In this document: piece by piece, positions 9,779 to 43,377 of the stretch
Numbering within the stretch: the first letter of the stretch is position 1
Layout: the number at the start of each line of letters is the position of its first letter
DNA from: Nemertoderma westbladi
Lineage: Eukaryota > Animalia > Xenacoelomorpha
DNA length: 64,000 bases
Assembly: GCA_032718475.1 (NCBI GenBank)
Contig: JAUCBJ010007289.1
Location: 420,741 to 484,740, forward strand
Direction of reading: 5' to 3'
Program-made: the position numbers and the translations under genes
Notes under the pieces: generated by a model
Told to the model about the DNA's origin: nothing
Databases searched by the model: none
What the model saw: the letters and a program-made list of their open reading frames with translations, nothing else

Positions 9779-12700
9779 ATGACGGAGTTGATAGAAGATG
9801 ATCTTGGTATCAGGGAGCGATATACTCTACCTTTACAAGCATTTGTGGATAGCTTAATACGCGGTGAAGCCGATCCAACCATTACGGAGGACGATGGTCG
9901 TTATATCGAACCGCCGATGTCCCAAGAGCAACTTGCTCGTGAATTGGACTATCGAAAATTCACCGCTCGCTATACGAATCGTAATGGTACATATATGGAC
10001 TTCTTAACTACCGGCCATCCTATCGATTTACATGATACGGACGATGTAGACACAGAAAGGGAAATGGTTCTATTTAAATATCATACCCAGCGGAGTCGTA
10101 ACGATAAACTGAGAATAGAACACGAAAATTCTATTCGTAACAGACTGGAAAGAGAAAACGTTGAAGAACCGGACAAACGCATCGACTTCAACGACTACCT
10201 GGAATTTTTGAGAGAAACTTATCTCAACACCGCCAGTCAACAGAACCTAGAGACTCGATATCCTCAAGGTATATATCATGACCCTATGGTAGAACTCAAA
10301 TGGCTCTATTTCACTATGATGTATCTTACCGCCGATCGTCCACTACCTGTTATCCCGGATAGTTTTGAACAAATGGAAGAATATTGCAAAACTGGAGAAC
10401 GATCACCCGCGTTTCCTCTACAGGACGTACGTCTTTGGTATTATTGTGACGAATGCCCTAGACACAACCAACAAACTGAAAGACATAAACATCCGCGGAG
10501 ACGTTGCGCTAAACACAGCTTTACGCGTTATACTTACGGGAGTTTCGAGCGAAACCTGTTCGACGTATCACCTACGATCGCTCGTCTTAAATGATCACTA
10601 AATAAACCTATGATCAGAGTTCCGGAATACTCGGTCAGGCCTCCTCATTCCCTAGTGAGACCTCAAACTCTTGATCCTAACAGTATCACTGATCCTCCCG
10701 AACTATATTCCCTGTTCAAAGATTTAGTGCTACCCGAACAATTAATCGGTGGTGCTCCGGTAGTGGGTTCGTTAGACATTCGCCCATCCTACTTAGCCGG
10801 ATTGGGACGCGGGCAGCTAATATCGCCATTTAATCCTTACAATCGTCCAGGATTAAACCCGATGCAACCCGCCACGGAAGTCGAAGAGAGCGTTATAAGA
10901 AACGCTTTAGACGCCATTCGACAGAAGATCGAAAAGGGAACACAAGATTGTTTAGAGAAACGTAAATTACAACAACAAGTCCAATCGGTGAAGGAGTTAG
11001 CCTTGCCACAGTTTGATAGAGAAATCCAAAACCTCGAGGAGGACATCGAGCTTGGACGCACGTATTCTCTACAAGAGTTTTTAGATGAACGCTTACAGAG
11101 ACAAGCGGAAGAAAATCTACTCGAGGAGAAACACACGAAAATGGACGAAAGAGAAGAAGCCGCTTTAGCCCAACCCGAAGCTCAAATCCTTATGACAGAT
11201 CTCTACTCTAAAACCGTCCGTCATCCCTCGATGGTTCCACATTTCGGAGACAAACTCTTCGCGACGATACAACCCCAACCGGTTGATATCAGTACGGGAT
11301 CGCAAAATCTTATCGCTGACGCCCCTATGTTACAGCGTCCGCCGATCGAGGCCGCTCGTGTTGACGGTATACTCGTTGAACCTCCGGACAATCGAGCGGA
11401 TCTTGTCCGTCGTATGGTACACGATGTCAACATATGCGCTAGACCTTTACAGAACTCGTTTTATGGGATTAAAGACCACCCTTATTACGTTAATCTGACT
11501 CAATATTATATGGTAAAACCAGAAGACCCGACGCATAATTTAAAGTTTCTACCACTAATAAATCCTCTAGACGTTGTCGAACTCGAACAATTGCAGAAAC
11601 ATCTGGATCAGTTGGTAAAGGTAAACTCATTTAGAAAACCATATAACATTTCTCGAATCGAGAAGGATATAGAACCTCCTTATAATCTCGATGGATTTAT
11701 TAAAACTCGATTAGTCCATTGGAATCTAGATGTATTATTTGAAGAAGAGAAAATACAAAGATATGGAAATGTGGAGACGTATACCACTCGGCACATGAAG
11801 TATAGTGATCTCCCTGACGCTAACCAATGCGCCACCTTGTGGCATCCAGTAGGGATGACCCTAGAGAACGCCACCAAAGAGTGGAATGAAACTCTTAATG
11901 TCATTGAGATGTATGGAGTTGTCACCTATGATAATGAAGGTAGCGTTCCGGTCGGAGAACTAGGAACTACGCGCATGATCCACATACGCGGATTAGCTGG
12001 TTCTACCCACGTGTTTACTCGAGCGTGTTCCGACGTGATTGATTATTCCTTCGAAACTCTCACCGAAACGCAAAAGAATCTCCGACATGGACAATTCGAA
12101 CTCACGCAGCGTTACGTCATTGACACCGAACGCAAACCGGCCATGGGTATCGATGGATCGATGTTACCCCAGCCCGTACTCGAGATGTTGTTCAACGAAA
12201 GAATCCTTAAAATCGGCTCAGCTGTTTATGGAGATTTCCAAAACGACTTTCGGAATATGGAGAACATTCCATACCCTTTCGTTGATACTCAGCTGATTGC
12301 TCCCTGGGCAGAAGGTCGAGGTTTCTTCCGCACCATGTATGCTAATACGTCCAGCAACATTACAAAGGTGCAACGAACTTCCATAGGACATCTTGCCTTT
12401 CAGGAATACGGATGGAATTTCAAAGTCGGAAATCCCATCAACTATCAACAAGTATACGGAGACCATTATTCTCGATTATACTTTGATGGACCATTGACCG
12501 CACCTGGCGCCGTGTATAGCTTCATGAGTGTTCCACTCTGTCCCTCCTTAGCTATCTACACGATCTTTGAAAACACCGCACTTGCCGGTTGGCTAGCCGA
12601 TGTGTGCAGTCGTACTATACGCGCCCATCCATTAATACTTGGGACCAAACTCGCTAAGCTAGATGAACATAATAAATTCATCCGCTTCGAATGTTTCCGG

Positions 12701-14032
12701 CGATTTTTAACCCCGTTCCGCAACGTGGATAGCCAATTTAAAGACCGCGCTTTGACCAAGCTCAGCCTAAGAAACTCAGCTGCAGAGAAGTTGGATAGCG
12801 CTGGATTTGCCATTTTCAAAGAGATTTGTATATCGAACTTGTACTCCTCTGTTATACAAAGACCTCGAATCCCCACAGGTTATTCTGTCGTGGAAATTCA
12901 GACAATAGGTCCACTTGAAGAGACAGACACTCCCACCTCAGCTATGCACTGGGAAGACGAACCAATATGCCTAGAATCTGAGGAGATTCAACCTATCGCA
13001 CCCCGGAACAGCGACAACGATTATATCCTAGAATGGTATCAAGGTCCACAGTGTCTCACTGCGTACGATTATCGCCATGCCAACTATGTCTCTCGGCAAC
13101 GTTGTCGGTTATGCGCATCGAGAGACCATGTTACGCCCACGGACACAAACGTCCGCTGTTCCTATTTCCAAGAAAAAGCGACAATGGAAATTTATTGCGC
13201 ATATTGCAGACTCAATAACTTGCATATTTTTGCGGTTTGCCCTCAATTTATGACTCAATGTCACCATTGTCAACTAAAGGGACACGCCAGTTTCGATTGC
13301 CCTTTTAATCACGATTTGGAAAGCATAGATGAAATGATCACACTACGTTACATCAGAGCTTGGGAAGCGAACGCTGATTTACATTGTGATTCGCGCCATC
13401 GCTATTATCCTGGACGCGCTTACGAAGGAGTTTATGCGTTCCATCCTTACCTATTCGCTTCTGTCGAACAGAAATCACGCATGGCGAGTTACGAACTACT
13501 AAAGCGCGTCGGAGAATGTATTTCAACCAAGTTCGTACGCAAATTTCTCAGGAGTGTTAATCCTAGCGACCTTCATTCATATAACCTAATCAATTATATC
13601 CGTCAGGATCCGGACTATGGAGACTTATTTGTTAACTCACACCCCGAGTTAAAGGAAGTATATCGACGGCCTTACGAATACCGAGCCCGCGAACGCGAGT
13701 TGGAAAGAACCATTAAACCCAGGAAGTTTCTGACTGCCTATGGTCCACCCACGGCTCTCGTTCAGACCACTCGTAAAGGACCCGTAAGAGCGGCCATCCT
13801 AAAACGCGCTCTCAAGGCCGTTAGACCCCTCTCCCCCGACGTTGATGTCAATCAACCCGGCACTTCGACTGGCGGATACACCGACCATAATCCTACACCC
13901 TCTGATGCAATCATATTGCACCCTTCACCCAGGAGTTATAGCCCTCCTTGTAAAGTGGCTCACCCCAAAGAGAAAAAGACTCTGGCCAGCTTTAAAAAAC
14001 TGCGTAAACGCCGTCCGCGCAAGAAGGACTAA
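9779..14032 (+). pseudogene. ORF3 of copy 1: ~1,417-aa accessory protein (DEDDy 3'-5' exonuclease-like domain plus zinc knuckles) with one premature stop
   Basis: ORFs 9779-10594 and 10610-14032 are in frame. TGA at 10592-10594 is CGA in copy 2. Motifs VVTYDNEG, LPQPVLEMLFNERILKIGSAVYGD, CHHCQLKGHASFDC. Ends KKLRKRRPRKKD. Confidence 0.85.
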
Positions 14033-21317: not shown

Positions 21318-21582
21318 TACTACTAGGATCGTCATGCTGCATAGCAGCTGCATTTTTAAGAATGCTGTGCCGGTTTGTCGACAAAATTGCGCCGCCACAA
21401 CTCCCCATCACCCATGACATTTGCTAGATCATCCTCATCTTCAAGGCCAGTGTCCTTTAAGATGCGGATGATCTAGCAAATGTCATGGGTGATAGGGAGT
21501 TGTGGCGGTGCAATTTTGTTGACAAGCCGGCACAGCATTCTTAAAAATGCAGCTGCAATGCAGCATGCCGATCCTAGTAGTA
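21318..21582. mobile_element. Foldback/palindromic MITE-like element (~265 bp)
   Basis: Near-perfect ~120-bp inverted arms TACTACTAGGATC...GATCCTAGTAGTA with a short loop and TA at both ends. Confidence 0.75.
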
Positions 21583-23950: not shown

Positions 23951-25133
23951 TGTAAAAGCTTTTGTGGGATAACTGATTCGTTTGCCTTGCCAACCAGTTC
24001 CCCCCCCCCCCCCCCCCCCCCGTCGCTGAATACTCTAAAAAGGGATACCTAGCTAGAATAGTGTAAGCTACCGGCTGATTGGCTAATTTGCTGTGCGAGA
24101 GGATCTGGGCTCTGCTCGATCGGCCAATAGAATTTGAGTGGGCGTTGATTTTGACCTATCCCAGAGCTACTGAACTGAAATTTTCCTATCTCACTGCTCA
24201 TCCTCTGTGTTGAACGGGAGCTTCGTGGAATAAGGGTAGTTGGTATCCTCGTATAGAGTAGTAGTCGGAGTCATATGATTCTGTTGTTGTGTTCCCATTT
24301 TTCGCCAGAACACCGGGCTTTTGGGAAGAACTTTAGTAAAACTGCTTAAATTATGGAAAGTATAAACTGTTACCTAATCTGATCAATCGACTAATCTAAT
24401 CTAATCTTGATTGGCACACGGCACGAACTTACTTATTAATTATATTGTTTGTACTGTTATTTACCGTCAGTTATTAATTGTATCGATTTGTTGATGAAAT
24501 ATTGTCATCTGGAGAATATTGATAAATCACCCGAATTACCCAATTTTCTTGATACACTACAGGTTAGAGAGACAGGCTATGTATAACAATTGCGATTTAT
24601 ATCAATGTGGTGTGTATTGAATCTAATGTTATTTAGTAGACACTACCTGAGTCAATTGCTGTTCTTTTTATGTGTGATCAAATTTACTGACGGTCGGCAG
24701 AATAGTGTGCATGATTGTGATTGGTAACAAAGCATTTCCTAAAGAATGCGCTTTATACTTTAATTATAAGCATTATCGTTGCGTTTGGTATAAGTCCTAA
24801 CTCTGTTTAAATAGATAGAGCGCCACGTCCTAAAGGAACTGTTAATATTTCCCGAAAGTGAATAATATCTGTCAGAAATTATATATTAGTGATCAATCGA
24901 ATAATACAGTAGGTTTACACTGCAACCTTACGCTGCAATAATAAAATTTAAGCATCCGAATTCAGCCTCCCGGGTGTAGATCCATCGGGTGAATGATCGC
25001 GCATGGGCTGGCTTCGGCTAATGTTTTGTTTATCAGCATAAAATATTGTCGTATGCTAAAGGTTTGTTAATTAACTAAAAGACATACAAATTTTGGCAGG
25101 TTAAACTGCTAAAGGTCTTCAAAAGCGCGAACA
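23951..25133 (+). repeat. 5' LTR of copy 2 (type B, 1183 bp)
   Basis: TGTAAAAG...GCGAACA. Differs from the 3' LTR by a C22 run and at least one substitution. CCAAT motifs at ~24078 (reverse) and ~24124; AATAAA at ~24940. Confidence 0.97.
24361..24373 (+). promoter_or_regulatory. Putative self-primer in type B LTR (TATAAACTGTTAC; also 42605-42617)
   Basis: Exact reverse complement of the 13 nt immediately 3' of the 5' LTR (25134-25146). Confidence 0.7.
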
Positions 25134-25146
25134 GTAACAGTTTATA
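25134..25146 (+). promoter_or_regulatory. Non-tRNA primer-binding site of copy 2 (GTAACAGTTTATA)
   Basis: Abuts the LTR CA end, lacks the TGG of a tRNA PBS, and is complementary to 24361-24373. Confidence 0.7.
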
Positions 25147-26093
25147 ATCTTATTGCAGTAAGCAATAAGGTTGCAAAATACCGTAGTAACCGGTAAACCT
25201 GAACCGGTACTTCTGTAGGTCAGTAGGCCCAGCTGTCAGAACCGGTACTTCTGTAGGCCTGTAGGCCCAACTGTCCTAACCGGTACTTCCAGTATAAGTA
25301 CATTAGTATTATTCGATTTTGATTATTGTATACCGGTAGGTCTTAGTATTTAATCAGGGACTGCAGCCCTGGTTTTTTATTGAGATTTTACTCATTCCTG
25401 TCGGTTTTATTTCCTAGTAAGTTAATATTGAGCTGAAGACGTGTAAGTCTGCTCAGATTGTTCAGATAATTGTAGGCTGAGCTGCTGTCTGACTGTTGTT
25501 GGGTTTGGAGAGATTACGGCGTGTGTAGAGTTTGTCTGATAAAGTGCCGTTAGTAAGTTGGGGCAGCCATATGCTGTAAGGTCAATCCCCTCTTAAAGAA
25601 TAAGTCGTACTACCGTGTTAGAACGCATACTAACTAACTATTTCAGAATCTGCATATACTGTAGTTTATTTAGGCTTGATCGTGGTCTGCCAGCATTTTA
25701 GCCTGTGTTTGTTTGTGTGGTCTGTTCAGGTACCGTAATAGTTATTACTCAGATATTTGTAGGCTGGATTGTTGTCTAGCTATTATTAGGTCTGAAGAGA
25801 TTGCTGCGTGTGTGGAGTTTGTCTGATAAAGTGCGGTTAGTAAGTTGGGGCAGCCATATGCTGTAAGGTCAATCCCCTCTTAAAGAATAAGTCGTACTAC
25901 CGTGTTAGAACGCATACTAACTAACCATTTCAGAATCTACACGTACGGTAGTTTATTTAGGCTTGGTGGTAGTTTGCCAGCGTTTGGTTTGTATTTGTTT
26001 GAGTATTCTGTACGGGTAGCGTAATATTTATTATTCAGAGTTTATGCGATTATTCGCAACATTCATGTCCCCAAGTTTATTCCTACAGTAATT

Positions 26094-26929
26094 GTGGCTG
26101 GCCACGAGAAAAGGGACCTTATGTCACCGGAGGTCGATTTTGAGTTATTAGGCCTATGAGATGCAGAATTTTCCAGAGATTTTAACAAAAAAAACGGTGT
26201 CTCAATATCTATTTCCAAAAAAAAGTTATAGCGATTTATGTCAAGGTGAATCGGGTAGCAAAAAATTTTTTATTAATAGCGGTTATAATAAGCGATTATT
26301 AAAAAAAATGGAAAATATTAATAATATCATAGCAATTCTTACTATATAGTTAGGCAGCTCAATGTTATTCGGCTTTTTATACAACTTTTAACAATTTGAA
26401 ACTAATATTGTTCATGAACTATTTTAACAAAAATTTTGCAAAATTTTCAAAAAAACATGAAACCAAAAATTTTTTTTTTTAATTTAAAATTTTTTCAAAA
26501 AGATAAATTTTTTTAACAAAATTTAAAATTATTTGTATTTTGAATTCTTTATTAGGATTACAAAATTTAAGAACTAACGAAGATTAATTAAGAAAATGAC
26601 AGCCATATTGCATTTAAAAAATAACTGTAGGCCTACAGTACCTACATAATACAGTAGTACAATTACAATTTATTACAGTCCTAAATTAAGACATGAAAAC
26701 CCTAAGACAGTGTTATATACAACACTGCAACATCTTATATTGCTTCCTGTAATTAGTTATTTCCTAGGTATATTGAATATCAGAACCAATTTGAATTTCC
26801 CTCATTGTTTTATACATTTCTAAATTGATAATCCAATTAAATTTGTTCAAAAATAGAGGGAAACTTTAAACGCGATTATCTCAGAATCAGGTTTTGCGAC
26901 ATAAGGTCCCTTTTCTCGTGGCCAGCCAC
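26094..26929. mobile_element. Non-autonomous TIR DNA transposon (MITE, ~836 bp) nested in the copy 2 leader
   Basis: 32-bp perfect TIRs GTGGCTGGCCACGAGAAAAGGGACCTTATGTC / GACATAAGGTCCCTTTTCTCGTGGCCAGCCAC. Absent from copy 3 (empty site TACAGTAATTGTG at ~47851). TSD is AATT, or AT if the termini are TG..CA. Confidence 0.92.
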
Positions 26930-28165: not shown

Positions 28166-31100
28166 ATGTCTGACACTCAGAAAAACCTGTCAGACAGTCT
28201 AATTGATACAACCATCTGTGACACAGATAGGAGTGTGGAGCGATTAAGAAAAGAGTTCAGTTCACCTCCTACTGTAAGAAAAGTCATCCGTCCAGTAGTA
28301 TCAGACCCTAGGCTAATCCACCATAGGTCCATCATAGGCACTCGGGCCCAGGTCAAACGGAACCAAGAGGCGGCTGTCCTATCGCAGCAACATCTTGGTC
28401 ACGAACCTAGTTCCCAACGAACCGATAGCTCCAGTAGTTCAGATACTGTAGAGCTCACCCCCGAACGTTGAGTGCAGATGACTACTACAGTCTACTCGGA
28501 CCCCCTTCTCACCCTTCCTGCTGCAGTGCTAACTACCATATTCATTGCGGTGGAGGAACATCAAGCCGACTGGGCGAGAAATAAGCGAGCAACCCAAGAT
28601 AATTATGCGGGATACGCCAGGGAAGAATTGATGTCTATTGTCGAGTCACAATGGAACTTTCCCGGACTCGGACTTCCGTTGGATCTGTCCGAGGCTACTT
28701 GGGAAGATATACACAGGATGGGAGTGGCGAAAGATACAATGGATCCAGCTGTCTGGAAGAGGTCGGCAGCAGGATATGTGCAGGGATTCTTCGGCTCCTT
28801 GGAGCGATTGGAAGAACAACTGTTTCGACAACCCCAAGGACCTCAAGAGCAGGAAGAGCTGCTATACCAAGTACGCGAAAGAACCCTACGCATTCGACTA
28901 ATCCTATCAGCCTTTGAGGAAACTTCCAAAAGAAGACAGGACACGTCGCTGCAGGTTGCTGTCAAAACTTGGTTCCATCGGGTAGGTCTCAAAGTACAGG
29001 AAACGGCCCAGTGGAAATCCCAGCTAGCTGAGAGATCAACCTATGAAGAACCAACTGATGCCACCCTTTCTCAAGCGGAAAGCGAAGAGACCGCAGAGAA
29101 ACCGCGAACTAGAGACGCTATAGACATTTATCTGTCCGACTATCAGCGATTTCTAGGAGACGAAGAGTTGAGGAGACGGCTGTCTGGACTTTCCCCTAAT
29201 AGTGAAGGAACCAAGCTTGTGTTGGACTCAATCGATGCGGAAATGTTAGCTGCCAACCAAGCTGAATTTGATGAAAAACTCCGCCTCGCTAGAGTCCAAG
29301 AAGAACAAGTAAAGAAAAAACGGATAGAGGAAAGAAAGGCAGCAGCAGTAACGGCGGCAGAAGCAGAAGCAGAAAGAAAAGCAGCGGCGGCAGAAGCAGA
29401 ATCAGAAAGAAAAGCAGCGGCGGCAAAAGCAGAATCAGAAAGAAAAGCAGCTGCGGCAGAAGCAGAAGCAGAGAGAAAGGCAGCAGTGGCAGAAGCAGAA
29501 CAGAGAGCTTCTGAGGAGACTATCCAACTGGAGTTGGAAAATCTGCAAGAGACGCAAGACAGCATAAATAAACAGTTTACTGCTAATCAAATGCAGATGA
29601 TGAGAAAATCTACTCCCAAGCGCCAGGGATACACATCCTCGGAGGAAGGCGAGACCACCGATCCTGAAGGCGGAGGAAATAGATCTCATCTAAGCAGGCG
29701 TAGAAAAACATCTTACCGTCGCAAATTGCCTGATTTGCCCCCAGCTGTTAGAAGACAGCTAGCTAGCACAGACTTGAGTAGTATAGAACCTACAGACCAA
29801 ATTATTAAGGTCAAAAGACTCCCTACTATAGTTGATGAGCCTGAAATAATTAGGCCTGTCGTTCCCAAAGTCACCCCTGTATTAGAGACCCCTGTACTTC
29901 CAGAGCTTAACTCTAAATTCCCTTTACATAGTACGACACTCCCTGTACCCGGTAGAACAGTCCAAGAGAATATCCCTGTCCGGATAGCAGAGGGAGAAAT
30001 CAAAGATTTGTCTCCCGTCGTCCCGCGTCAGCCCGCTACTATGTTGGCGACTCCCGCTTCGGCGGTTGAGTGGGTAGAGGAGGGACGGTGGGGGATGAAT
30101 CTCCTGCTCGGACAAATGCAGGAGACTGTCCACCAGCTTAAGGGAACAGTAAGGGAAAGTAGAGCAGAGTTGCAAGAAGTGCAGCAAAGTATCGCACTGG
30201 AACGCGACAAATTAGTCAATATACAAAAGGGCATACCAATACCCCCTGTAACCTTGTGTCAACCTGTTAGGTCTGAAGTATTACATGCGCAAGGTGTGGA
30301 GCCTACACGCATCTATACTGCTAGTGAAGTAGAAACTCCTATAGCAAACCCTATTAAGGGTGATTATAAACCTATCGTTAATGATATTCCCTATAGACCT
30401 GATAATAATCCAGGAAATTTATATACCGATAATTCGATATTAAATAACACGATGGCCCAAGAAAGCTTTACACGTCAAATGGCTAGAACAGAAGCCCGCC
30501 AAGCGGTCAAAGTGGGAGAGATCGTCAAATTCAATGGAGATGAGATGAAATGGTTACCTTTCAACGAATATTACAAAGATAGCATACAGAACTCTGTACT
30601 ATCTAACGGAGAGAAACTTAGATTCCTCATCAAGTGCTTGGAAGGACCTCCCAAGTTAATGGCGTTAAAGTTTATTGGACATCCAGATGGATTAAGACAA
30701 GTTTGGGATACATTAAATATCAGGTATGGTAACAAGGATAACATAGCTAAGTATTTGTATGCAAAATTAGTAGCCCCCCGACACTTCCTTAGTAACGGGA
30801 TTATAGAGTTTTCCGATGAAATTCAAGAGATCTGTAGACAACTAGACTGGTTAGGTAAGTCTCATGAATATCAGAGTTCCATGGTTATTGGAGCCGTAGT
30901 CTCTACTTTACCAAAGGGTGGAGTATGTACACGCTGGGACAAGAAGGTGTTGTACATGAATGAACAACAACGACGAAGTCCTACTATGACGGATCTCATG
31001 TCCTTCTTAGATGGTGAAGTAAAACTACAACTCATCAAGCAGTCCAGAGAGAAAACATCGGAAAATAAGGTAAGTGAGAAACCCGCTTCTAGGAGAAGAG

Positions 31101-34100
31101 TAACACCGGTGTGTTACACTGACGACGGCGAAAGCCAAGCTTCTCAAGAAGAGGACAGCGGAAAGGATACAGAAAGATCTTACTACATTGACAAAACCTC
31201 AAAGGACGTAAGTAAATACAAGGCTCGAAACAACGATAGGAGAGAACAGGTTGCCAAGACCCCCCCTCAGTCTCCTAAGAGAATGCACCGAAGAAAACCC
31301 GAAGAAAAAACGAGAGTGCATCAAGCTACCCAAGGTAAAGTGAGTAACATAAAACCTAACTGTGCGCTGTGCGACGGGACCCACCGTTTGAGTGCGTGTG
31401 CTGAATTTCTAAAGAAATCCCTTGTGGACAGACGTACAGTCGTGTGGGACAAGCGGTTATGCTATAATTGCCTCAGACCAGGACACCAACGGCGAACCTG
31501 TTACTCCGACATAAAGTGTGCAAAGTGTGGCGCGCAACATCACATCTTGTTACACAGTGAGTTCGAACGAGACAAACAGAGTCAGGTAAGTGAGCCTGAA
31601 CTACATGTCCAATTCAGTGATGTAAATGACACTGATCAGGAGTCTGAGATGGAAGGATTCTATACTGACGAATTCTCTGACGCCAATGAATCCTGTTATC
31701 TAATAAATACCGCAGTGTATCGAGCACTTACTTACGAAAAGGACATCAACGAGGAGTTTCCCCCTACTACTTTTAACAAACAACCATCTTGGAAAGCTCC
31801 AACTTCCAACGTAGGAAAAGAGAATTTCCTGTAGTGCAGGTAAGAGTTCACGGTCTTAACAAAAGTTACATAGTGAACGCCCTCCTGGACTCCGGCAGCA
31901 CAGGAACATTCATCGATCAAGAACTAGCCGAAGATATCTTTGCTGGACAACCCAAGTTCCGGACTAAATTGAATATGTCAGGAATTATGCAGGTTTGGAA
32001 ATCTACCCTGACGGCAGATTACTATGTAGGTGTGTTGTCCACCCCCCAGGATAAGTTAGGAACACAAGGTGTAAGGTCAGTAAAAATGGTGGCTATAAAG
32101 AACTTCGCTACTACCCAAGCAGACCTTTATAATTGGGACGAGGATGAGAGCATCCAACATCTTAAGATACCTCGATTCCAGACAGATTATCCTGGAGTGC
32201 AAATACTCATCGGCCAAAACGCGCACGAAGCGCTTGAGACATTGGAGAAACGGCCTGCTCAACCACAGCCACTGCAAACCTATGCGGTAAGAACTAGAGT
32301 AGGTTGGTACTTTACTGGCCCTTCCCGTAGAACTCTAGAAGAGAGAATGCCCCACGAACAAATATATCAGGTAAGTGATTGGGAAGAGGAAAGCAGTGAG
32401 GTGGACGAACTAACTGAGGGAACACCATACTCCTCAGATAATGACGACATCTACCAACTCTTCGATGAAGAGAACACAATGGACCTACTTACCGAAAACC
32501 AAACTTGGAAAAATCAGGTGAATCTATGTCAACTGATTCGCCCATCGGAACCCATTGCTTACAATGACGAACTAAACGATGAGATAGAGCGTTACAACGC
32601 TAGAACTCGGGACGAACTAGCCGTAAGATTCTTTACTCAAGAACTGATCGAGCCCAATTCATACGATAAGGCTCTATCGATAGAAGAAGAAAGAGCCAAG
32701 CAAATCCAGGAAACAACTACACGTTTTTTAAAGGACCAAGGTAGGTATGAAATCGGCCTACCATTCCGAAAACGAGAACCTAGATTTATAAATAACAGAC
32801 CCTTGGCAGAGAAAAGAATCGCTCAATTACATCGACGCCTTACAGCTAATAATTCAGCGAAAGAAATGTACCAAACTCAGCTGAGGAAATTTATAACAAA
32901 GGGATACGCGGAGCGAGTACCGGAAGGAACACCAGTGACTGAGAGAACGTATTACTTGACACATCATTACGTTCCCAAACCCGGCAAACCCAACGAAGTA
33001 CGAGTCGTATTCGATGGCTCCGCCCTATATATGGGCCAATCCCTTAATTCCGAGTTGTTACCAGGACCCAACTTACTCCAATCTTTGTTGGGAATACTTT
33101 TAAGATTAAGACAATATTCCATCGCGTTCGCCTCCGATATAGAAGGAATGTTCTTACAAGTCAAGGCGCTGGATAGAGATAGAGACAGCCTGAGATTTCT
33201 GTGGTGGCCTGAAGGAGACCTCAACCAGAAACCGGTGGAGTACTGGATGACCATCCAGGCTTTTGGGATCATATCTAGCCCTTCCAACGCCTGCTCCGTG
33301 GTGCGAACCACTGCGAATGACAATCGAGACTCCTTCTCAAAGGAAGTGATAGACAACATAAAACGCAATATATATATGGACGACAATTTAAGGTCCCTTC
33401 CATCAGTAGAAGAAGCCATAGCTGTCGCGAAAGGAACAGTAGAATGTTTGAAAAGAGGTGGATTTCGACTGACGAAATTCACTAGCAACTCCCGTGAGTT
33501 TCTGGAAGCCATACCGGTAGAAGACCGAGGAACGAAAGACCTAGACTTAATAAAGGACGATCTTCCGGAAACCAAGACGCTAGGCTTGAAGTGGGACACT
33601 GAAAGAGACATCCTGTTTTTTCAGTTAAAACAGCGAGATAATCCAGTTCGAACCAAACGGATTTGTTTAAGTATCCTGAGCACTTATTTCGACCCATTGG
33701 GATTTATTAGCCCAGTTATCTTGATTGCTCGGAGTTTAGTACAACAGATGTGGCTTGAAAACCACTCATGGGACGATCCGCTTAAGGGAGAACTGTTGAA
33801 GAAATGGATGAAATGGGAAGATTCTCTACCTGCCATCGAGAACTTTATAATTTCCCGTGCATATTTTGGCCATGTTCTCCCTACGTATTCCTATCAACTC
33901 CATGTATTTGGAGATGCCAGCGATATGGGAATCGGTATAGTGGCATACCTGCGAGTCGAAACTCCGGATGGAATCAAAGTTGCCTTGGTTACATCTAAAG
34001 CATTGATTAACAACAAGCTTAAGGTTCCTCGGGCGGAGTTAAAAGCAGCTTTATACGCTACAGCTATCGGCCGGAATGTAACAGAACAGATCGATTATAC

Positions 34101-36249
34101 ACTGGAGAAAACGGTTTATTGGACCGACGCTTTACTTGTGTTGGAATATATAACGAATGAAGCCTGTCAGTTCAGCGTCTTTGTTACTAACAGAGAGGCC
34201 ATTATTCTTAGTCGCACAACGATAGATCAATGGAGACATTGCCCTGGTACGATTAACCCAGCTGACATCGCCTCCAGGGGAGCAACTCCACAGGAACTGA
34301 TAGATACTCCTGACTGGTTGGGTGGACCCGACTTCCTGAGCAAGGAAGAGGATGAATGGCCTCCTCACCTTACTACGGCTGAGATTAGACAAGCCAAGGG
34401 AGCGGAGAAAGTCAAACCCAAAACTCGGACAAGTAAATCGAAGTTATTTAAACCGACAATCGATCTATCTGTATTACATATTGCCGAAAACGATACTTCG
34501 GATCCACAATCTCCCACCGCAAACAAGTCTGTTGTGGAAATTAGAGACAGAGATTGGAAATCTGGAATACCAGACGTCTCGCAAGGAATCTCACCCCTGC
34601 TGCAGAGAGCACTGCATCATTATAGTTCCTGGAATCGTCTCTGTAAAGCTGTCACCTACTTAAAGAGATGTTTTCACCATCACTACTCCAGGACGCAAGC
34701 GCCTGCTCCAGTGACATCTGCGCAAGTTCATGTTATTAAAGATCTACCTAAGTACAAGATATCAGACCGGTTTCTACAGGAGAAGATCAGCTACCAGGAG
34801 CATGAAGAAACTAATAAGCAGCTACTGAGACTCCTACAATGCTATGAGGATTCCGATAGGTATTTTCTGTTGTTGAGAAATCCGCAGATGCGCTTAAGGG
34901 ATCGCTTCTCTAGCACAATGATAGATGGGTTAATACGTGTTGGAGGAAGGCTTACAAACGCCCCATTATCCTTTGATACTAAATTCCCTATACTCATTAG
35001 TAATCTTGAAGTACAAATCAAGATGATTGTAGATGTTCACAGCAAACTGTATCTTGCTGGTAGAGAACGAGTTCTTAGCGAAATTCGAACTCGCTATTAT
35101 TTTCATAAACCACATAGAGCTCTGAATCAAGTTCTTAGGAACTGCATACCTTGTAGGAAAGCATTCAGTAGGCCTTTAACACAGCGAGAGGCAGAATTAC
35201 CTAGGGAACGAGTAAGCTTTTATGAACCACCCTTTACTAATACTGGTGTGGATTTATTTGGCCCTATTGAAGTGTATCGTGCTAGGACTATAGTCAAGAG
35301 ATGGCGTGTAATCTTTGTCTGCATGACTTGTAGAGCTATACATCTCGATATGGTGAACGATCTATCTACTAACAGCTTCGTCTTATGTTTACGACGACAG
35401 ATCGCTCGTTTCGGAACTAGCAACACGATGAGATCCGATAAGGGAACGAACTTCATTGGTGCCAACAACGAAATTCAGGCTTACGTAAAGGACTGGAATC
35501 AAAGACAGGTGGACGACCAGCTGCGGATAACGGTGTCTAGCTGGACCTTTAACGCCGCCGACGCCCCTTGGTGGGGAGGAAGTTGGGAAAGATTAATTCG
35601 AAGTGTCAAGACCGCATTTCACTTTATAGTGCCGTGCCGCGCATATCTCACCGACGAACTTCTGCGGACGTTAATGGAAGAAATCGCCGCCTATCTTAAC
35701 GAGAGACCGCTTATGCCAGTCTCGTCGAGTATAGACTCCCTGGAAGCGCTAACACCCGCGCACTTCCTACTTAAGAAACCTGTAGCCATGCTCCCACAAT
35801 CCGAGATTGCCGATGGGGATGAATACTGTCGTCGAACTTGGCAGCTTATGCAGTTGCTATCCCGTCGTTTCGCTGACCATTTTGAGAAACATTATCTGCC
35901 CACGCTACAACTTCGAACTAAGTGGTTTGCACAGCAGGAAAATGTCAGCGCCGGAGACATGGTGCTTATTGTAGATCCGGACCTTCCACGTAGACGGTGG
36001 CAGATAGGTCGTATCATCGAGACGCACATCTCGGAGGATGGTCTAGTGCGCTCAGTAGAACTCGTTGTCATGAGGCGTAACTTCAAAAAACCCGGTATAA
36101 TCTTTGAGATGCAACAACTCAATCGCCCGGTTGGTCGTTTATGTTTGCTGGAAAGAGACCGGGAACTCTCCGGAAACTATGGAAGGCAAGAAACTCTTCC
36201 CACGACCACCTCCCTAATACCTCAAACATCTAGGGGCTCCTCAACGTAG
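28166..36249 (+). pseudogene. gag-pol: gag-pol polyprotein of copy 2 (~2,690 aa when repaired); Pol portion 31789-36249 is open
   Basis: Gag core and three knuckles, protease ALLDSGS, RT YMDD, RNase H FGDAS, integrase D,D,E and a BEL C-terminal domain (WQ..F..HYLPTLQLRTKW). Lesions: TGA at 28469-28471 (GGA in other copies) and a 1-nt deletion at ~31818 (GGAAAAGAG vs GGAATCAGAG). Confidence 0.95.
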
Positions 36250-37870
36250 TACGTCTGGAGTGGGTGTATGTCTATATTATTTTATCTATTTTTATTACAT
36301 TTTATATGTAAATGTTATTATGTACGTTATTATAATCGTTTTTATTTAATTTTATTTAGTAAAATGTTATTTTAGAATATTTAGTAAATTAGTGCAATAT
36401 ATTAGTGTTTATTACGTACTTAATTACTTATAATATATTTAGTGCGACGGCAAGAAATAATTATTTTCTCTTTCCTTACTGTCCGTATTATATTATAAAT
36501 GCGAGACTATAGTAAGATGACATGTCAGTACTTATTAAAGTACAATAAAGCCACTACTATATTTAAGTATTATTGGTAGGCAGAGTATTAGGAATGCAAA
36601 GTTCAGATCCTCGTGTCTCGGCTAAACCAAGCTCTGGGTAGACCTTGGAAACGACTTGCCTCTTCACACTGACATTGCTTCGTGCGATATTGCTCTTCTA
36701 CCTTATCTCAAATAATACATATAGTAGCGTGATGTCCCTATAACAGTAGCGTAAAACGCAAATAAATCTGTTAAACCTTTTGACCATCTGTAATTCTAGT
36801 CGATTAAGATATCGTGGCACCCACCGATATACTTGAAAGACAAATTCTAGAATCAGTGGTTAACGTCCCCAGACAAGTTCTGGAATAAATCGGTGCCCAT
36901 CTTAAATATTAATTTAATATTTATTATAATCTGTAAAATTCAGGTCCGTTAACAATTCTAGTCGATTAAGATATCGTAGCCCTTACCGATACTCTTAAAA
37001 GACAAATTTCATAGAATTAAGGATCCGATGTCCCCAGACCTGCTCTGGAATAAAATTGTGTCAATTTTAACATCAAATAATAAAATTCACGGGAATAAAT
37101 TTAAATTCATATTTTAAATGAATTTCATAAATTGTCATTTTGTACAATTTATAACATTCCCAAAATTCCATTAATTAATAGATCATGGGAGCGGAGATTC
37201 ATCCTATTGAGTGTATTAGAGTGCGAGAATCTCCAGTATATAGTCAATAGCCGATAAAATTTATAAAATCATGCATAAAGAGGATATTGACAATTAAAGA
37301 ATTACTATTAAATAGCATCCCAGATCTGTATGCATGAGAATTACCCTAATTCTACCGCTAGTTTTCCATAATGTCACCATGGCAACACCCACGCTAGAAT
37401 TAGAAGCAAGTTAAAGGAACAAAAAGGGCTTGCCCCATTGCGTAGCATAAGAGAATACATAGCGCACTATTAGTATCCAAGGATACATAGTAATAACGTG
37501 ACATTCTGGAAGACACTGACTAACGGACAAAATGGCCTGCATGTGTGCAGTAAGTAATGATTGTATGGAATTTGTGCGTTTATAGGTGAATGATACTACT
37601 AAAGTGTGTTTACAGTAGCTAATCGCAATTGTAAAGTAGCCTAACTCTACCGAGATAACCTCAAGTGGATTCAAGCCTTTGGGACGGACAGTGGTGGGAC
37701 TTGTGTCGATTATCGTTGTCGTGCTGTTGCTACATGTTGGCGTAAACACCGCGACAACGGTGCATCGGCGCTGAGAAACCCACTGTCCGGGGGCGAAAGA
37801 ATAGTAGGCAGCGACGCCCGCTTGCCTAAATATTGACTCATACTAATATTAATAAACTCCGATAGCAGAT

Positions 37871-40800
37871 ATGACGGAATTAATAGAAGATGACCTTGGT
37901 ATTAGAGAACGATATACCCTACCTTTACAAGCGTTTGTGGATAGCTTGATACCCGGTGAAGCCGATCCGACTATTACGGAGGACGATGGTCGTTATATCG
38001 AACCGCCGATGTCCCAGGAACAACTTACGCGTGAATTGGACTATAGAAAATTCACCGCTCGCTATACGAATCGTAACGGTACGTATATGGACTTCTTGAC
38101 TACCGGCCATCCTACCGATTTACATGATACGGACGATATAGACACCGAAAGGGAAATGGTTCTCTTTAAATATCATACCCAGAGGAGTCGTAATGATAAA
38201 CCGAGAATAGAACACGAGAACTCTATTCGCAATCTACTCGACAGAGAAAGCGTGGAAGAACCCGATAAGCGCATCAACTTCAACGACTACCTGGAATTTT
38301 TGAGAGAAACCTATCTCAATATTGCCAGTCAACAGAACCTAGAGACTCGATATCCCCAAGGTATACATCATGATCCCATGGTAGAACTCAAACGACTCTA
38401 TTTCACCATGATGTATCTTACCGCAGATCGTCCACTGCCTGTTGTCCCAGACAGCTTTGAACAAATGGAAGAGTATTGCAAAACTGGAGAACGATCACCC
38501 GCGTTTCCTCTGCAGGACGTACGTCTTTGGTATTATTGTGACACATGCCCTAGACCTAACCAGCAAACGGAAAGACATAAACATCCGCGGAGACGTTGTG
38601 CTAAACACAGTTTTACGCGTTATACTTACGGGAGTTTCGAGCGAAACCTGTTCGACGTATCGCCTACGATCGCCCGTCTCAAACGATCGTTAAATAAACC
38701 CATGATCCGAGTTCCGGAATACTCGATCAGGCCTCCTCATTACCCAGTGAGACCTCAAACTCTTGATCCTAACAGCATCACTGATCCTCCCGAGTTATAT
38801 TCACTGTTCAAAGATTTGGTGTTACCCGAGCAGTTAATCGGTGGTGTTCCGACAGTAGGTTCGTTAGATATTCGACCATCCTATTTAACCGGATTGGGAC
38901 GCGGGCATCTAACATTGCCATTTAATCCTTACAATCGGCCAGGATTAACCCCGATACAACCTGCCACGGAAGTCGAGGAGAGCGTTATAAGAAAAGCTTT
39001 AGACGCCATCCGACAGAAAATCGGAAAGGGAACACAGGATTGTCTAGAGAAACGTAAACTACAGCAGCAGGTCCAATCGGTGAAAGAGTTAGCCTTGCCG
39101 CAGTTTGATAGAGAAATCCAAAACCTCGAAGAGGACATCGAGCTTGGACGTACGTATTCTCTACAGGAGTTTCTAGAAGAACGTTTACAGAAGCAAGCGG
39201 AGGAAAATCAACTCGAGGAGAAACATACGGAAATGGATGAGAGAGAAGAAGCTGCTTTAGCCCAACCCGAAGCTCAGATACTCATAACCGATCTCTACTC
39301 TAAAACCGTCCGTCACCCCTCGATGGTTCCGCATTTTGGAGACAAACTCTTCGCAAAGATACAACCCCAACCGGTTGATATCAGCATAAGATCGCAAAAT
39401 CTTATCGCTGACGCTCCTATGTTACAGCGTCCGCCAATCGAAGCTGCTCGCGTTGACGGTATACTCGTTGAACCTCCGGACAATCGAGCGGATCTTGTCC
39501 GTCGTATGGTACACGATGTCAACATACGCGCTAGACCTTTACAGAACTCTTTCTATGGAATTAAAGACCACCCTTATTACGTTAATTTGACTCAATATTA
39601 TATGGTAAAACCAGAAGACCCGACGCATAATTTAAAGTTTCTACCACTAATAAATCCTCTAGACATTGTCGAACTCGAACAATTGCAAAAGCATCTGGAT
39701 CAGTTAGTAAAATTAAACTCATTCCGAAAACCATATAACGTTTCTCGAACAGAGAAGGATACCGAACCTCCTTATAATCTCGATGGATTTATTAAAACTC
39801 GATTAGTCCATTGGAATCTAGACGTATTATTCGAGGAGGAGAAAATACAGAGATATGGAAATGTGGAGACGTATACCACTCGATATATGAAGTATAGTGA
39901 TCTCCCTGACGCTAATCAATGCGCCACCTTGTGGCATCCGGTAGGGATGACCCTCGAGAACGCCACCAAAGAGTGGAATGAAACTCTTAATGTCATCGAG
40001 ATGTATGGCGTTGTTACTTACGATAACGAAGGTAGCGTTCCGATCGGAGAATTAGGAACTATGCGCATGATACACATACGCGGATTAGCTGGTTCCACTC
40101 ACGTGTTTACGCGAGCGTGTTCCGACGTGAGCGATTATTCCTTTGAAACTCTCACCGAAACGCAAAAGAATCTCCGACATGGACAATTCGAACTCGCGCA
40201 GCGTTACGTCATTGACACCGAACGCAAACCGGCCATGGGTATCGATGGATCGATGCTACCCCAGCCCGTTCTAGAGATGTTGTTCAACGAAAGAATCATT
40301 AAAATCGGCTCAGCTGTTTATGGAGATCTCCAAAACGACTTTCGGAATATGGAAAATATCCCCTATCCTATCGTGGATACTCAGCTGATTGCTCCCTGGA
40401 CCGAAGGCCGAGGTTTCTTTCGCACCATGTATGCCAATACGTCTAGCAACATTACAAAGGTGCAACGAACTTCCATCGGACATCTTGCTTTTCAAGAATA
40501 CGGATGGAATTTCAAGGTCGGAAATCCCATCAACTATCAACAAGTATACGGAGACCATTATTCTCGATTATACTTTGACGGACCGTTGACCGCACCTGGC
40601 GCCGTGTATAGCTTCATGAGTGTTCCACTCCGCCCCTCCTTAGCTATCTACACGATTTTTGAAAACACCGCACTTTCCGGTTGGCTAGCCGATGTGTGCA
40701 GTCGTACTATACGCGCCCATCCATTAATCCTTGGGACCAAACTCGCTAAGCTAGATGAACATAATAAATTCATCCGCTTTGAATGTTTCCGGCGATTCTT

Positions 40801-42178
40801 AACCCCGTTTCGCAACATGGATAGCCAATTCAAAGACCGCGCTTTGACCAAGCTCAGCTTAAGAGACTCAGCTGCGGAGAAGTTAGATAGCGCTGGATTT
40901 GCTATTTTCAAAGACATTTGTATAACAAACCTGCACTCCTCTGTTATCCAAAGACCTCGAATCCCCACAGGTTATTCTGTCGTGGAAATTCAGACGGTAG
41001 GTCCACTTGAAGAGACAGCCATGCCTACCTCAACTATACAAGGAGAAGACGAACCCATATGCTTAGAATCCGAAGAGATTCAGCCTCCCACACCTCGGAG
41101 TAGCGACAGCGATTACATTTTGGAATGGTATCAAGGTCCACAGTGTCTCACTGCGTATGATTATCGCCATGCCAATTATGTTTCTCGACAACGTTGTCGG
41201 CTGTGCGCGTCGAGAGACCATATTACGTCTATGGACACAAACGATCTCTGTTCCTATTTCCACGAGCAACCGCCGATGGAAATCTATTGTGCATATTGCC
41301 GGCTTAACAATTTGCACATTTTTGCTGTCTGCCCCCAATTTATGACTCAATGCCATCATTGTCAATTAAAAGGACACGCCAGCTTTGATTGTCCCTTTAA
41401 TCATGATTTAGAGAGCGCAGATGAAATGATTGTACTACGTTATATCAGAGCTTGGGAAGCGAACGCTGATTTGCACTGTGATTCACGCCATCGCTATTAC
41501 CCTGGACGCGCTTACGAAGGAGTTTATGCGTTCCATCCTTATTTATTTGCCTCCGTCGAGCAGAAATCACGTATATCAAGTTACGAACTACTGAAGCGCG
41601 TCGGAGAATGTATTTCAACCAAATATGTGCGCAAATTTCTCAGGAGCATTAACCCTAGTGACATCCATTCTTACAACTTAATAAACTTTATCCGTCAAGA
41701 CCCTGATTATGGAGACTTATTTGTCAACTCGCACCCCGAGTTACAGGAAGTATATCGACGGCCTTACGAGTACCAAGCCCGCGAACGCGAGTTGGAAAGA
41801 ACCATTAAACCAAGGAAGTTTCTGACTGCCTATGGTCCACCTACGGCTCTCGTTCAGACCACTCTTAAAGGACCCGTAAGAGCGGCCGTCTTAAAACGTG
41901 CTCTAAAGGACGTTAGACCCCTCTCCACCGAAGTTGAAGTCAACCAACCCGGCACTTCGACCGGCGGATATACCGATCGTAATCCCATACCTTCTGATGC
42001 AATCATATTGCATATATATCATATTGCATCATATTGCCTCCTTGTAAAGTGGCTCGCCCCAAAGAGAGAAAGACTCTTGCTAGCTTTAAAAAACTGCGTA
42101 AATGCCGTCCGCGCAAGAAAGACTAACTGTTTAGAGTATTTTTATATTTTAGAAACTGTGATTTTGTATATTTTATAG
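37871..42178 (+). CDS. ORF3 of copy 2: accessory protein with coiled coil, DEDDy (WRN/RNase D/EXD-like) exonuclease fold and CCHC knuckles; last ~55 codons frameshifted relative to copy 1
   Basis: Open 1,435-aa frame. ExoI VVTYDNEG (~40010-40033), ExoII KIGSAVYGD (~40301-40327), ExoIII-like GPLTAPGAVYSFMS (~40580-40621). Knuckles CRLCASRDH, CAYCRLNNLHIFAVC and CHHCQLKGHASFDC. A local rearrangement at ~42010 changes the C-terminus. Confidence 0.85.
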   Translation: MTELIEDDLGIRERYTLPLQAFVDSLIPGEADPTITEDDGRYIEPPMSQEQLTRELDYRKFTARYTNRNGTYMDFLTTGHPTDLHDTDDIDTEREMVLFKYHTQRSRNDKPRIEHENSIRNLLDRESVEEPDKRINFNDYLEFLRETYLNIASQQNLETRYPQGIHHDPMVELKRLYFTMMYLTADRPLPVVPDSFEQMEEYCKTGERSPAFPLQDVRLWYYCDTCPRPNQQTERHKHPRRRCAKHSFTRYTYGSFERNLFDVSPTIARLKRSLNKPMIRVPEYSIRPPHYPVRPQTLDPNSITDPPELYSLFKDLVLPEQLIGGVPTVGSLDIRPSYLTGLGRGHLTLPFNPYNRPGLTPIQPATEVEESVIRKALDAIRQKIGKGTQDCLEKRKLQQQVQSVKELALPQFDREIQNLEEDIELGRTYSLQEFLEERLQKQAEENQLEEKHTEMDEREEAALAQPEAQILITDLYSKTVRHPSMVPHFGDKLFAKIQPQPVDISIRSQNLIADAPMLQRPPIEAARVDGILVEPPDNRADLVRRMVHDVNIRARPLQNSFYGIKDHPYYVNLTQYYMVKPEDPTHNLKFLPLINPLDIVELEQLQKHLDQLVKLNSFRKPYNVSRTEKDTEPPYNLDGFIKTRLVHWNLDVLFEEEKIQRYGNVETYTTRYMKYSDLPDANQCATLWHPVGMTLENATKEWNETLNVIEMYGVVTYDNEGSVPIGELGTMRMIHIRGLAGSTHVFTRACSDVSDYSFETLTETQKNLRHGQFELAQRYVIDTERKPAMGIDGSMLPQPVLEMLFNERIIKIGSAVYGDLQNDFRNMENIPYPIVDTQLIAPWTEGRGFFRTMYANTSSNITKVQRTSIGHLAFQEYGWNFKVGNPINYQQVYGDHYSRLYFDGPLTAPGAVYSFMSVPLRPSLAIYTIFENTALSGWLADVCSRTIRAHPLILGTKLAKLDEHNKFIRFECFRRFLTPFRNMDSQFKDRALTKLSLRDSAAEKLDSAGFAIFKDICITNLHSSVIQRPRIPTGYSVVEIQTVGPLEETAMPTSTIQGEDEPICLESEEIQPPTPRSSDSDYILEWYQGPQCLTAYDYRHANYVSRQRCRLCASRDHITSMDTNDLCSYFHEQPPMEIYCAYCRLNNLHIFAVCPQFMTQCHHCQLKGHASFDCPFNHDLESADEMIVLRYIRAWEANADLHCDSRHRYYPGRAYEGVYAFHPYLFASVEQKSRISSYELLKRVGECISTKYVRKFLRSINPSDIHSYNLINFIRQDPDYGDLFVNSHPELQEVYRRPYEYQARERELERTIKPRKFLTAYGPPTALVQTTLKGPVRAAVLKRALKDVRPLSTEVEVNQPGTSTGGYTDRNPIPSDAIILHIYHIASYCLLVKWLAPKRERLLLALKNCVNAVRARKTNCLEYFYILETVILYIL

Positions 42179-42204
42179 ACTTAAATCCGATTTTCTGGGA
42201 GCGG

Positions 42205-43377
42205 TGTAAAAGCTTTTGTGGGATAACTGATTCGTTTGCCTTGCCAACCAGTTACTGAATACTCCGTCGCTGAATACTCTAAAAAGGGATACCTAGCTAG
42301 AATAGTGTAAGCTACCGGCTGATTGGCTAATTTGCTGTGCGAGAGGATCTGGGCTCTGCTCGATCGGCCAATAGAATTTGAGTGGGCGTTGATTTTGACC
42401 TATCCCAGAGCTACTGAACTGAAATTTTCCTATCTCACTGCTCATCCTCTGTGTTGAACGGGAGCTTCGTGGAATAAGGGTAGTTGGTATCCTCGTATAG
42501 AGTAGTAGTCGGAGTCATATGATTCTGTTGTTGTGTTCCCATTTTTCGCCAGAACACCGGGCTTTTGGGAAGAACTTTAGTAAAACTGCTTAAATTATCG
42601 AAAGTATAAACTGTTACCTAATCTGATCAATCGACTAATCTAATCTAATCTTGATTGGCACACGGCACGAACTTACTTATTAATTATATTGTTTGTACTG
42701 TTATTTACCGTCAGTTATTAATTGTATCGATTTGTTGATGAAATATTGTCATCTGGAGAATATTGATAAATCACCCGAATTACCCAATTTTCTTGATACA
42801 CTACAGGTTAGAGAGACAGGCTATGTATAACAATTGCGATTTATATCAATGTGGTGTGTATTGAATCTAATGTTATTTAGTAGACACTACCTGAGTCAAT
42901 TGCTGTTCTTTTTATGTGTGATCAAATTTACTGACGGTCGGCAGAATAGTGTGCATGATTGTGATTGGTAACAAAGCATTTCCTAAAGAATGCGCTTTAT
43001 ACTTTAATTATAAGCATTATCGTTGCGTTTGGTATAAGTCCTAACTCTGTTTAAATAGATAGAGCGCCACGTCCTAAAGGAACTGTTAATATTTCCCGAA
43101 AGTGAATAATATCTGTCAGAAATTATATATTAGTGATCAATCGAATAATACAGTAGGTTTACACTGCAACCTTACGCTGCAATAATAAAATTTAAGCATC
43201 CGAATTCAGCCTCCCGGGTGTAGATCCATCGGGTGAATGATCGCGCATGGGCTGGCTTCGGCTAATGTTTTGTTTATCAGCATAAAATATTGTCGTATGC
43301 TAAAGGTTTGTTAATTAACTAAAAGACATACAAATTTTGGCAGGTTAAACTGCTAAAGGTCTTCAAAAGCGCGAACA
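42205..43377 (+). repeat. 3' LTR of copy 2 (type B, 1173 bp)
   Basis: Direct repeat of 23951-25133, preceded by the PPT and followed by TSD CTCAT. Confidence 0.97.

Follow-up and report, generated by a model that had tools for sequence, protein, structure and literature searches.

A BEL/Pao retrotransposon of Nemertoderma westbladi carries a constrained accessory gene with a predicted RNase D-type domain and zinc knuckles

Nuclease-fold genes in the env position are known from mobile elements of bdelloid rotifers: in the available part of the report, Juno, Vesta and Terminons encode a DEDDy-type third open reading frame (ORF3) with a DEED motif and no activity shown, and the env and GDSL ORFs that were sequenced did not depart from neutrality (PMC5408684). 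The accessible portions of three reviews (PMC6431247, PMC6338049 and PMC5718144) repeat this case only, and those of PMC13269885 add no further DEDDy-ORF case. Here we describe an ORF with a predicted domain of this type in 64,000 nucleotides from the xenacoelomorph Nemertoderma westbladi (GenBank assembly GCA_032718475.1, contig JAUCBJ010007289.1, positions 420,741 to 484,740), a stretch called the window below. The window holds three copies of one BEL/Pao long terminal repeat (LTR) element, all on the + strand; the ORF is seen in copies 1 and 2, and copy 3 terminates upstream of it. A prediction made earlier by a model from these letters (the original prediction) had cited rotifers and nematodes as precedents for DEDDy ORFs in LTR elements. 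The rotifer precedent is documented (PMC5408684, as far as available), whereas none for nematodes was found in the literature searched: “nematode” and “Cer1” occur 0 times in the available text of that report, and “exonuclease” 0 times in that of the Cer1 CERV paper (PMC10309623). No BEL/Pao element with an exonuclease-type gene was found in the literature searched, with Repbase, GyDB and subscription journals outside the search. Such env-position genes, described earlier in rotifer elements without selection evidence or function, are thus extended to BEL/Pao.

Other systems offer partial likenesses. In the available parts of the respective sources, the RND protein of Trypanosoma brucei (TbRND) has RNA-holding CCHC fingers behind its Exo domain, and Ala in place of the Asp that is its fourth acid leaves trace activity (PMC7797062); Egalitarian (Egl) uses its EXO domain to bind RNA stem-loops, the catalytic residues being dispensable (10.1101/2025.08.03.668247); and CERV of the Caenorhabditis elegans element Cer1 exports genomic RNA (PMC10309623). 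For the host family, the Belpaoviridae profile of the international virus taxonomy committee (ICTV) lists lengths of 4.2-10 kb, a tRNA primer site of 18 nt and no third gene beyond an env-like one (PMC8742986).

The ORF of ~1,400 residues that had been placed between pol and the polypurine tract was confirmed in copy 2 (37871-42178, 1,435 amino acids (aa)) and has a second copy at 9779-14032. It starts 1,622 nt past the pol stop and ends 27 nt ahead of the 3′ LTR. It had been called a third ORF and is actually the second, gag continuing into pol in a single frame in copies 1 and 3. The motifs quoted for it are all there, at residues 717, 796, 810, 835, 868 and 904. The ORF is intact in neither copy, as copy 2 has a frame change near 42010-42035 and copy 1 a premature stop (Table 1). 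Contigs of a sequencing run, X1, cover every bin of the ORF, some with 15-19% divergence; because X1 also has forms that skip 38843-39195 and 39228-41980, deleted copies exist. The presence of the ORF in the element family is judged from the two copies and this one run.

Purifying selection acts on the entire ORF and is as strong there as on pol. Under a codon model (kappa 4.9), the ratio of nonsynonymous to synonymous rates (omega) between copies 1 and 2 was 0.126 over 1,380 codons, an estimate from one pair of copies that covers the lineages since their split, and neutrality (omega 1) was rejected (p 8e-72). The same comparison gave 0.117 for pol and 0.241 for the 3′ part of gag. The Nei-Gojobori value for the ORF was 0.095, by a method that overstates the synonymous rate. 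Six segments of the ORF had omega values of 0.126, 0.121, 0.088, 0.22, 0.091 and 0.141, the lowest being that of the exonuclease segment, and residues 1-690 (0.12-0.13) were constrained like the remainder. The seven differences in the first 17 codons, from which purifying selection had been suggested, are indeed all synonymous, and a ratio near 1 is excluded. We also classified 51 X1 variants, the best-supported rows (35 of 301 in one listing and 16 from another); 43 match the copy 1 base and add nothing, and the remaining eight are all synonymous compared to 29% expected. Being constrained like pol, the gene would therefore be needed by the element.

Relatives were sought by a HMMER scan of residues 601-1245 against 1.84 billion representatives, which recovered two environmental proteins of the European Nucleotide Archive, P0001 (648 aa, E 1e-7) and P0002 (575 aa, E 5e-5). 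Both run from an exonuclease-like domain through a linker and Cys/His knuckles to a further module, and both lack the N-terminal 690 residues of the ORF. Judged by sequence, these three distant members form an exonuclease-knuckle protein family that is newly defined here. P0002 has a canonical D-E-D-D-Y set, and P0001 has Glu as the fourth acid, in YIYCENT. The top ESM Atlas match of P0002 was a Euglenozoa exonuclease-CCHC cluster (0.92, 194 features), which as to orthology with TbRND is a lead only. The conserved aromatic module of P0001 and P0002 ends in WGFF, P0002 being the better enzyme candidate. Their longest contigs measure 9.4-11.5 kb; five scans of viral, metagenome and genome data for their genomic context were empty. 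Word-index searches with the exonuclease fragment had no match, and those with two alignments recovered the query-side protein alone.

Three CCHC-like knuckles had been predicted in the ORF, and three are present, with all 12 ligands conserved in both copies, but only the third has the canonical x2-x4-x4 spacing, the others being x2-x4-x9 and x2-x5-x4. A knuckle profile matched HIV nucleocapsid (E 0.001) and zf-CCHC_3 (E 0.003). Copy 1 reads the predicted basic tail in frame, but in copy 2, to which the given coordinates belong, the Lys/Arg-rich stretch lies in another frame. The Gln/Glu stretch proposed as a coiled coil exists, but a crude heptad test found at most 29% hydrophobic a/d positions.

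Residues ~700-945 probably adopt an RNase D/DEDDy exonuclease fold, a well supported assignment from sequence tests that are individually weak and mutually consistent. D718, E720 and D819 align with the first three acids of RNase D, P0001 and P0002. The top ESM Atlas match was a DNA_pol_A_exo1 cluster (0.93, 165 shared features, where the tool's mark is 170), and the NCBIfam RNase D model TIGR01388 matched with E 0.0013. A family profile scored 12.0 bits against Escherichia coli RNase D, with 0/1,000 shuffles above 5.4, and 2.4 bits against the PolA exonuclease, with 5/1,000 shuffles as high. Run against 401 bacterial genomes, the profile had a match at E<=1 in 128, and the best 30 loci were 24 RNase D, four PolA exonucleases and two neither. 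By hhalign, the profile matched 80 independently fetched RNase D sequences with 76.9% (score 39.3); 60 column shuffles reached at most 23.2 (at most 4.2%) and the reversed control 0.2%. We prefer this unbiased value over the 95.5% obtained with another RNase D set because the latter had been chosen by the same profile. The hhalign value for the PolA exonuclease was 68.9%. When a three-sequence exonuclease profile was searched against 177,635 PDB sequences, only Egalitarian (E 0.11) and EXD2 (E 0.33) matched at E<=10. The ORF or P0002 alone gave noise or nothing in phmmer searches of the PDB, and phage tblastn and PHROGs gave noise only. AlphaFold2 models had predicted local distance difference test (pLDDT) scores of 33.6 (residues 661-1010, single sequence) and 27.7 (residues 661-1225, 4-row alignment); Foldseek and VIA with the former returned only GNAT and helical-repeat noise.

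The active site is altered in its fourth acid. D718, E720 and D819 of the proposed DEDDy pattern are kept, but the quoted “GPLT....Y” has Ser at the place of the catalytic Asp. Two Exo III registers lie 14 residues apart, and neither has a Y-x3-D, the fourth acid being Glu931 or Ser917. Register scores for Y913/S917 and Y927/E931 were 4.0 and 0.9 with RNase D, 13 and 1 with P0002, and 1 and 16 with P0001, so that RNase D and P0002 slightly favour the former and P0001 the latter. A recent DNA duplication behind the two candidates was not supported (14-15/42 bases alike). An alternative Exo I, “VIDTE” (D782), was rejected, as it lies 37 residues from Exo II compared to 57-78 in RNase D, P0001 and P0002. 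Real nuclease activity of the protein is predicted with about even chances.

Set beside the rotifer ORF3, with which it was compared by description, the ORF shares an RNase D-like DEDDy domain, a non-env character, the location after pol and an altered tetrad. However, the rotifer change concerns the third acid (DEED) and the present one the fourth, and DEED is not common to both because the third acid here is Asp. The available text describes Juno and Vesta as hosts with a dUTPase and short LTRs (159-551 bp), with ORF3 reportedly free of coiled-coil and transmembrane parts, and demonstrates no purifying selection on ORF3, whereas the present ORF belongs to a BEL/Pao element, is 1,435 aa long and has three knuckles, a basic tail and the low omega given above. 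With TbRND the likeness is one of architecture only, CCHC fingers behind an Exo domain of RNase D type. TbRND, as described in the accessible text, is a cellular mitochondrial enzyme of ~380 aa with four fingers, a 28-aa linker and a canonical DEDD, while our ORF separates the two domains by ~160 aa, has three fingers and adds both a further module and 690 residues at the N-terminus; the PDB entries of TbRND had no sequence match in our searches with the ORF, P0002 or the profile. Drosophila Egalitarian shows a DEDDy fold that binds RNA stem-loops for transport, but it and EXD2, the only PDB matches, are host genes, and Egl keeps all four acids, with no CCHC fingers described in the available text. 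CERV, in the part of its report available, is likewise an accessory protein of an LTR element, has a Cys-rich region and a basic signal, and acts on genomic RNA; it differs in having no exonuclease and in being spliced from gag-region exons, so the analogy is functional only.

The non-coding spacer between pol and the ORF differs between the copies at 104/1,595 sites, compared to 92/527 fourfold sites in the ORF (p 2e-12); fourfold sites of pol differ at 98/578. The simple reading is that the spacer is under constraint, although recombination between copies may be another cause of the similarity. No small + strand ORF of at least 40 aa explains the conservation. The long G-U-rich hairpin that precedes the ATG had a z of -3.4 over a 421-nt stretch (0/100 shuffles), and its 150-nt window a z of -4.9 compared to a best of -2.4 among 20 ORF windows (12 shuffles each). 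All four stem changes in copy 1 preserve pairing. A single sub-threshold Rfam match, to U12, was taken as chance.

Our tentative preference, held at somewhat less than an even chance and argued by analogy, is that the ORF is an accessory gene whose protein binds the element's own structured RNA and aids its export, placement or packaging. An RNA-binding protein is suggested by the combination of nucleocapsid-like fingers, a basic tail and a DEDDy fold whose site is non-canonical. Such a soluble protein, with its predicted RNase D-type fold and knuckles, would act as an adaptor on the long RNA of the element, and any cutting of RNA would probably be weak or secondary. On the model of trypanosome RND, the knuckles might hand RNA over to the exonuclease fold, which, like that of Egalitarian, could hold a stem-loop without catalysis. 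The basic tail may act as a nuclear or as an RNA-binding signal. A candidate ligand is the conserved hairpin upstream of the ATG, and the protein would be produced from its own subgenomic mRNA. The hairpin as candidate RNA partner and the altered active site make the enzyme-or-adaptor question testable on a single protein fragment.

A number of observations weigh against this role. Both copies retain the three acids and the Tyr, and the DEDDy set of P0002 is complete, which would fit an enzyme as well as a binder. The Egl match is weak, with no sign of descent from Egl, and most BEL/Pao elements do without such a gene. Profile searches did match the expected DEDD fold, weakly, but Pfam found nothing on the ORF, PF01612 included; the PDB matches are all above E 0.1, the ORF alone reached 20.5% with the unbiased RNase D set, and most of the RNase D match comes from ~47 residues around Exo II. 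The ~690 N-terminal residues have no match in Pfam, NCBIfam or PHROGs. No two-sided compensatory change occurs among the 70 predicted pairs of the hairpin in the two sequences, and the hairpin may instead serve translation, Gag packaging or small-RNA production. The sequence upstream of the ATG shows no splice acceptor that has a pyrimidine tract, and a branch-like motif there is not conserved in copy 1. In X1, whose contigs also extend over LTR, MITE and spacer, no GT-AG joint into the ORF was present among 15/21 joints, the type of the run being a guess and the joints uninformative on splicing.

If the kept residues mean catalysis, the protein could be an active 3′-5′ ribonuclease directed against host silencing, its knuckles catching single-stranded small RNAs or their precursors and its exonuclease shortening or destroying them. 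The acids D718, E720 and D819 and a Tyr-x3-acid (the Y927/E931 register, compare YIYCENT of P0001) are kept in both copies, the exonuclease segment is the most constrained, P0002 is canonical, and its Euglenozoa match has the architecture of TbRND, a trimmer of small guide RNAs. Yet the fourth acid is Glu or Ser, TbRND without that Asp has only trace activity (PMC7797062, available part), and a silencing role is named merely as a possibility in the accessible text of PMC5408684; we regard this function as unlikely, if with a probability that is not small. Packaging into particles would allow another use, the tidying of ends during reverse transcription, by trimming of a self-primer as far as its duplex or by removal of 3′ mismatches for a polymerase unable to proofread. 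The self-complementary primer site that had been proposed is real: in copy 2 it pairs with the LTR over 13 nt (0/1,000 shuffles), and in copy 3, with differing letters, over 11 nt (3/1,000 shuffles); nucleocapsid-like knuckles could carry the protein into particles, the element genome is unusually long, and EXD2/WRN-type relatives act on DNA. But 1,435 aa far exceed what trimming needs, the active site is non-canonical, the Tf1 primer is made by the RNase H of reverse transcriptase, and nothing links the ORF to the self-pairing primer site, which leaves this use improbable. A bolder version, in which a particle-borne 3′-5′ exonuclease matures the self-primer, proofreads for reverse transcriptase, let the genome reach 18 kb and belongs to a spread mobile-element exonuclease-knuckle family, can draw on the ExoN that accompanies large RNA virus genomes, and strikes us as a long shot.

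The weight of the protein might also lie elsewhere, with a scaffold whose main job (chromatin, protein turnover or cell-to-cell passage) resides in the N-terminal half and whose exonuclease-knuckle part is an RNA tether. Residues 1-690 are constrained, absent from P0001 and P0002 and unmatched in databases; there is, however, no positive evidence for such an activity, and we give the idea a low probability. The location after pol and the broken state of both copies would agree with an envelope gene, or with a host gene that was captured and is carried as an unused passenger. But pol and gag in these copies are broken too, the ORF has no intron and no host family match, and its omega equals that of pol. 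As had been stated, the ORF is not env: a hydropathy scan (no dedicated predictor) found no signal peptide or membrane segment, the highest Kyte-Doolittle score of any 19-residue window being 1.52, inside the frame-shifted end, and the N-terminus is acidic. Omega and hydropathy already refute this very improbable explanation, barring a near-identical host gene converting the copies.

Table 1 Coordinates of the features described in the text (positions in the window).
Feature	Position	Strand	Remarks
5′ LTR	23951..25133	+	TGT...ACA ends; CTCAT directly before
Primer site	25134..25146	+	Reverse complement of LTR 24361-24373; no TGG
Miniature inverted-repeat transposable element (MITE) in 5′ leader	26090..26929	.	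840 nt net
gag-pol, BEL/Pao type	28166..36249	+	DUF1759, protease, reverse transcriptase, Peptidase_A17, integrase, DUF5641
Non-coding spacer	36250..37870	+	~1.6 kb, between pol and ORF
Duplicated ~115-nt unit	36785-36910, 36948-37075	+	Shared fold
Long G-U-rich hairpin	37675..37794	+	Ends 76 nt before ATG, kept in copy 1
Accessory ORF, copy 2	37871..42178	+	ATG to stop, 1,435 aa, single open frame
Accessory ORF, copy 1	9779..14032	+	1,417 codons, premature stop at 10592
N-terminal Cys/His motif	38537..38608	+	C223, C226, H236, H238, C243, H246; no family match
Gln/Glu-rich stretch	39023..39265	+	Probably helical
RNase D/DEDDy-like domain (predicted)	39968..40705	+	Residues ~700-945
Exo I/II acids	D718 (40022), E720 (40028), D819 (40325)	+	
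Exo III candidates	Y927/E931 (40649/40661) or Y913/S917 (40607/40619)	+	
Three Cys/His knuckles	41195..41392	+	
Module behind knuckles	41393..41545	+	Common to P0001 and P0002
Lys/Arg-rich tail	42037..42126	+	Read in frame by copy 1 only
Polypurine tract region	42189..42204	+	
3′ LTR	42205..43377	+	CTCAT directly after

Copy 2 is a full-length element (23951-43377, 19,427 nt, + strand) flanked on both sides by a 5-bp target duplication, CTCAT, and its LTRs are identical at 1,164/1,173 aligned bases (99.2%). Pfam matched its gag-pol with DUF1759 (6e-12), Peptidase_A17 (4e-36), DUF5641 (1e-19), Integrase_H2C2 (4e-4) and protease (0.024), YMDD is visible in pol, and the domains are in the order protease, then reverse transcriptase, then RNase H and, last, integrase. 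By its LTRs, target duplication and pol domains, the element is a BEL/Pao LTR retrotransposon; no related pol was found in viral contigs. It shares with the Belpaoviridae the TG...CA LTRs, the gag-pol order, the BEL-specific Pfam domains and three Gag knuckles, and differs from the ICTV description in its 18.6 kb, a primer site that pairs with its own LTR and the exonuclease-type gene. The length of 18.6 kb without the MITE follows from an X1 contig that joins 26089 to 26930 and skips 840 nt, an empty site. The element had been called giant, and it is 2.5 times the median of 7,382 bp in an automated BEL/Pao survey, but it remains below the maximum of 22,762 bp reported there (PMC3118150, available part).

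In copy 2, gag is interrupted by a stop at 28469, the reading frame changes near 31815, and the gag/pol break is a lesion. In copy 1, ~72 nt including the protease active-site motif are missing at ~3840-3850, with the frame intact. A 33-bp (11-residue) Ala/Glu/Lys repeat in gag (29306-29539) varies in number between the element copies. The 5′ leader (25134-28165) is ~2.2 kb without the MITE, contains a 288-bp duplication and short repeats, and differs between copies 2 and 3 by 4.8% over 1,230 aligned bases. A poly-C run at 24000-24022 in the 5′ LTR corresponds to ordinary sequence in the 3′ LTR; a C run is found near the matching place in X1 as well, and the run may be real.

No TGG follows the LTR, and in place of the 18-nt tRNA primer site of the ICTV profile the element has the 11-13 nt of LTR pairing. 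The missing tRNA primer site is a departure from that description, and the pol-based assignment to BEL/Pao stands. Two LTR types occur (14111-15313, 23951-25133 and 45667-46824): the LTR of copy 2 resembles the LTRs of copies 1 and 3 at ~80%, with the first ~500 nt unaligned by BLAST, compared to ~92% for the internal regions, and the primer site switches together with the LTR type. Directly 3′ of the primer site, copies 2 and 3 have a short hairpin (25147-25170 and 46836-46858).

Other elements lie around these copies. Pol of copy 3 is interrupted at 53840-58562 by a non-LTR retrotransposon that we take to be CRE-like. The target duplication of this insertion measures 14 bp, and the element ends in poly(A); its frame of 1,418 codons has a Cys-rich start, 8-residue repeats, an RVT_1 match (E 3e-4) and a restriction-like endonuclease-type end. 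A related second non-LTR element (~60465-64000, one stop near 61745) cuts off copy 3. All five retroelements of the window are on the + strand, like a one-strand small-RNA cluster, a 5/5 count that is not significant. Between 43469 and 45666, 677-bp units form three tandem copies with inverted arms, directly behind which copy 3 adjoins, and at 21318-21582 the arms of a 132-bp inverted repeat are 93% complementary and separated by 1 nt.

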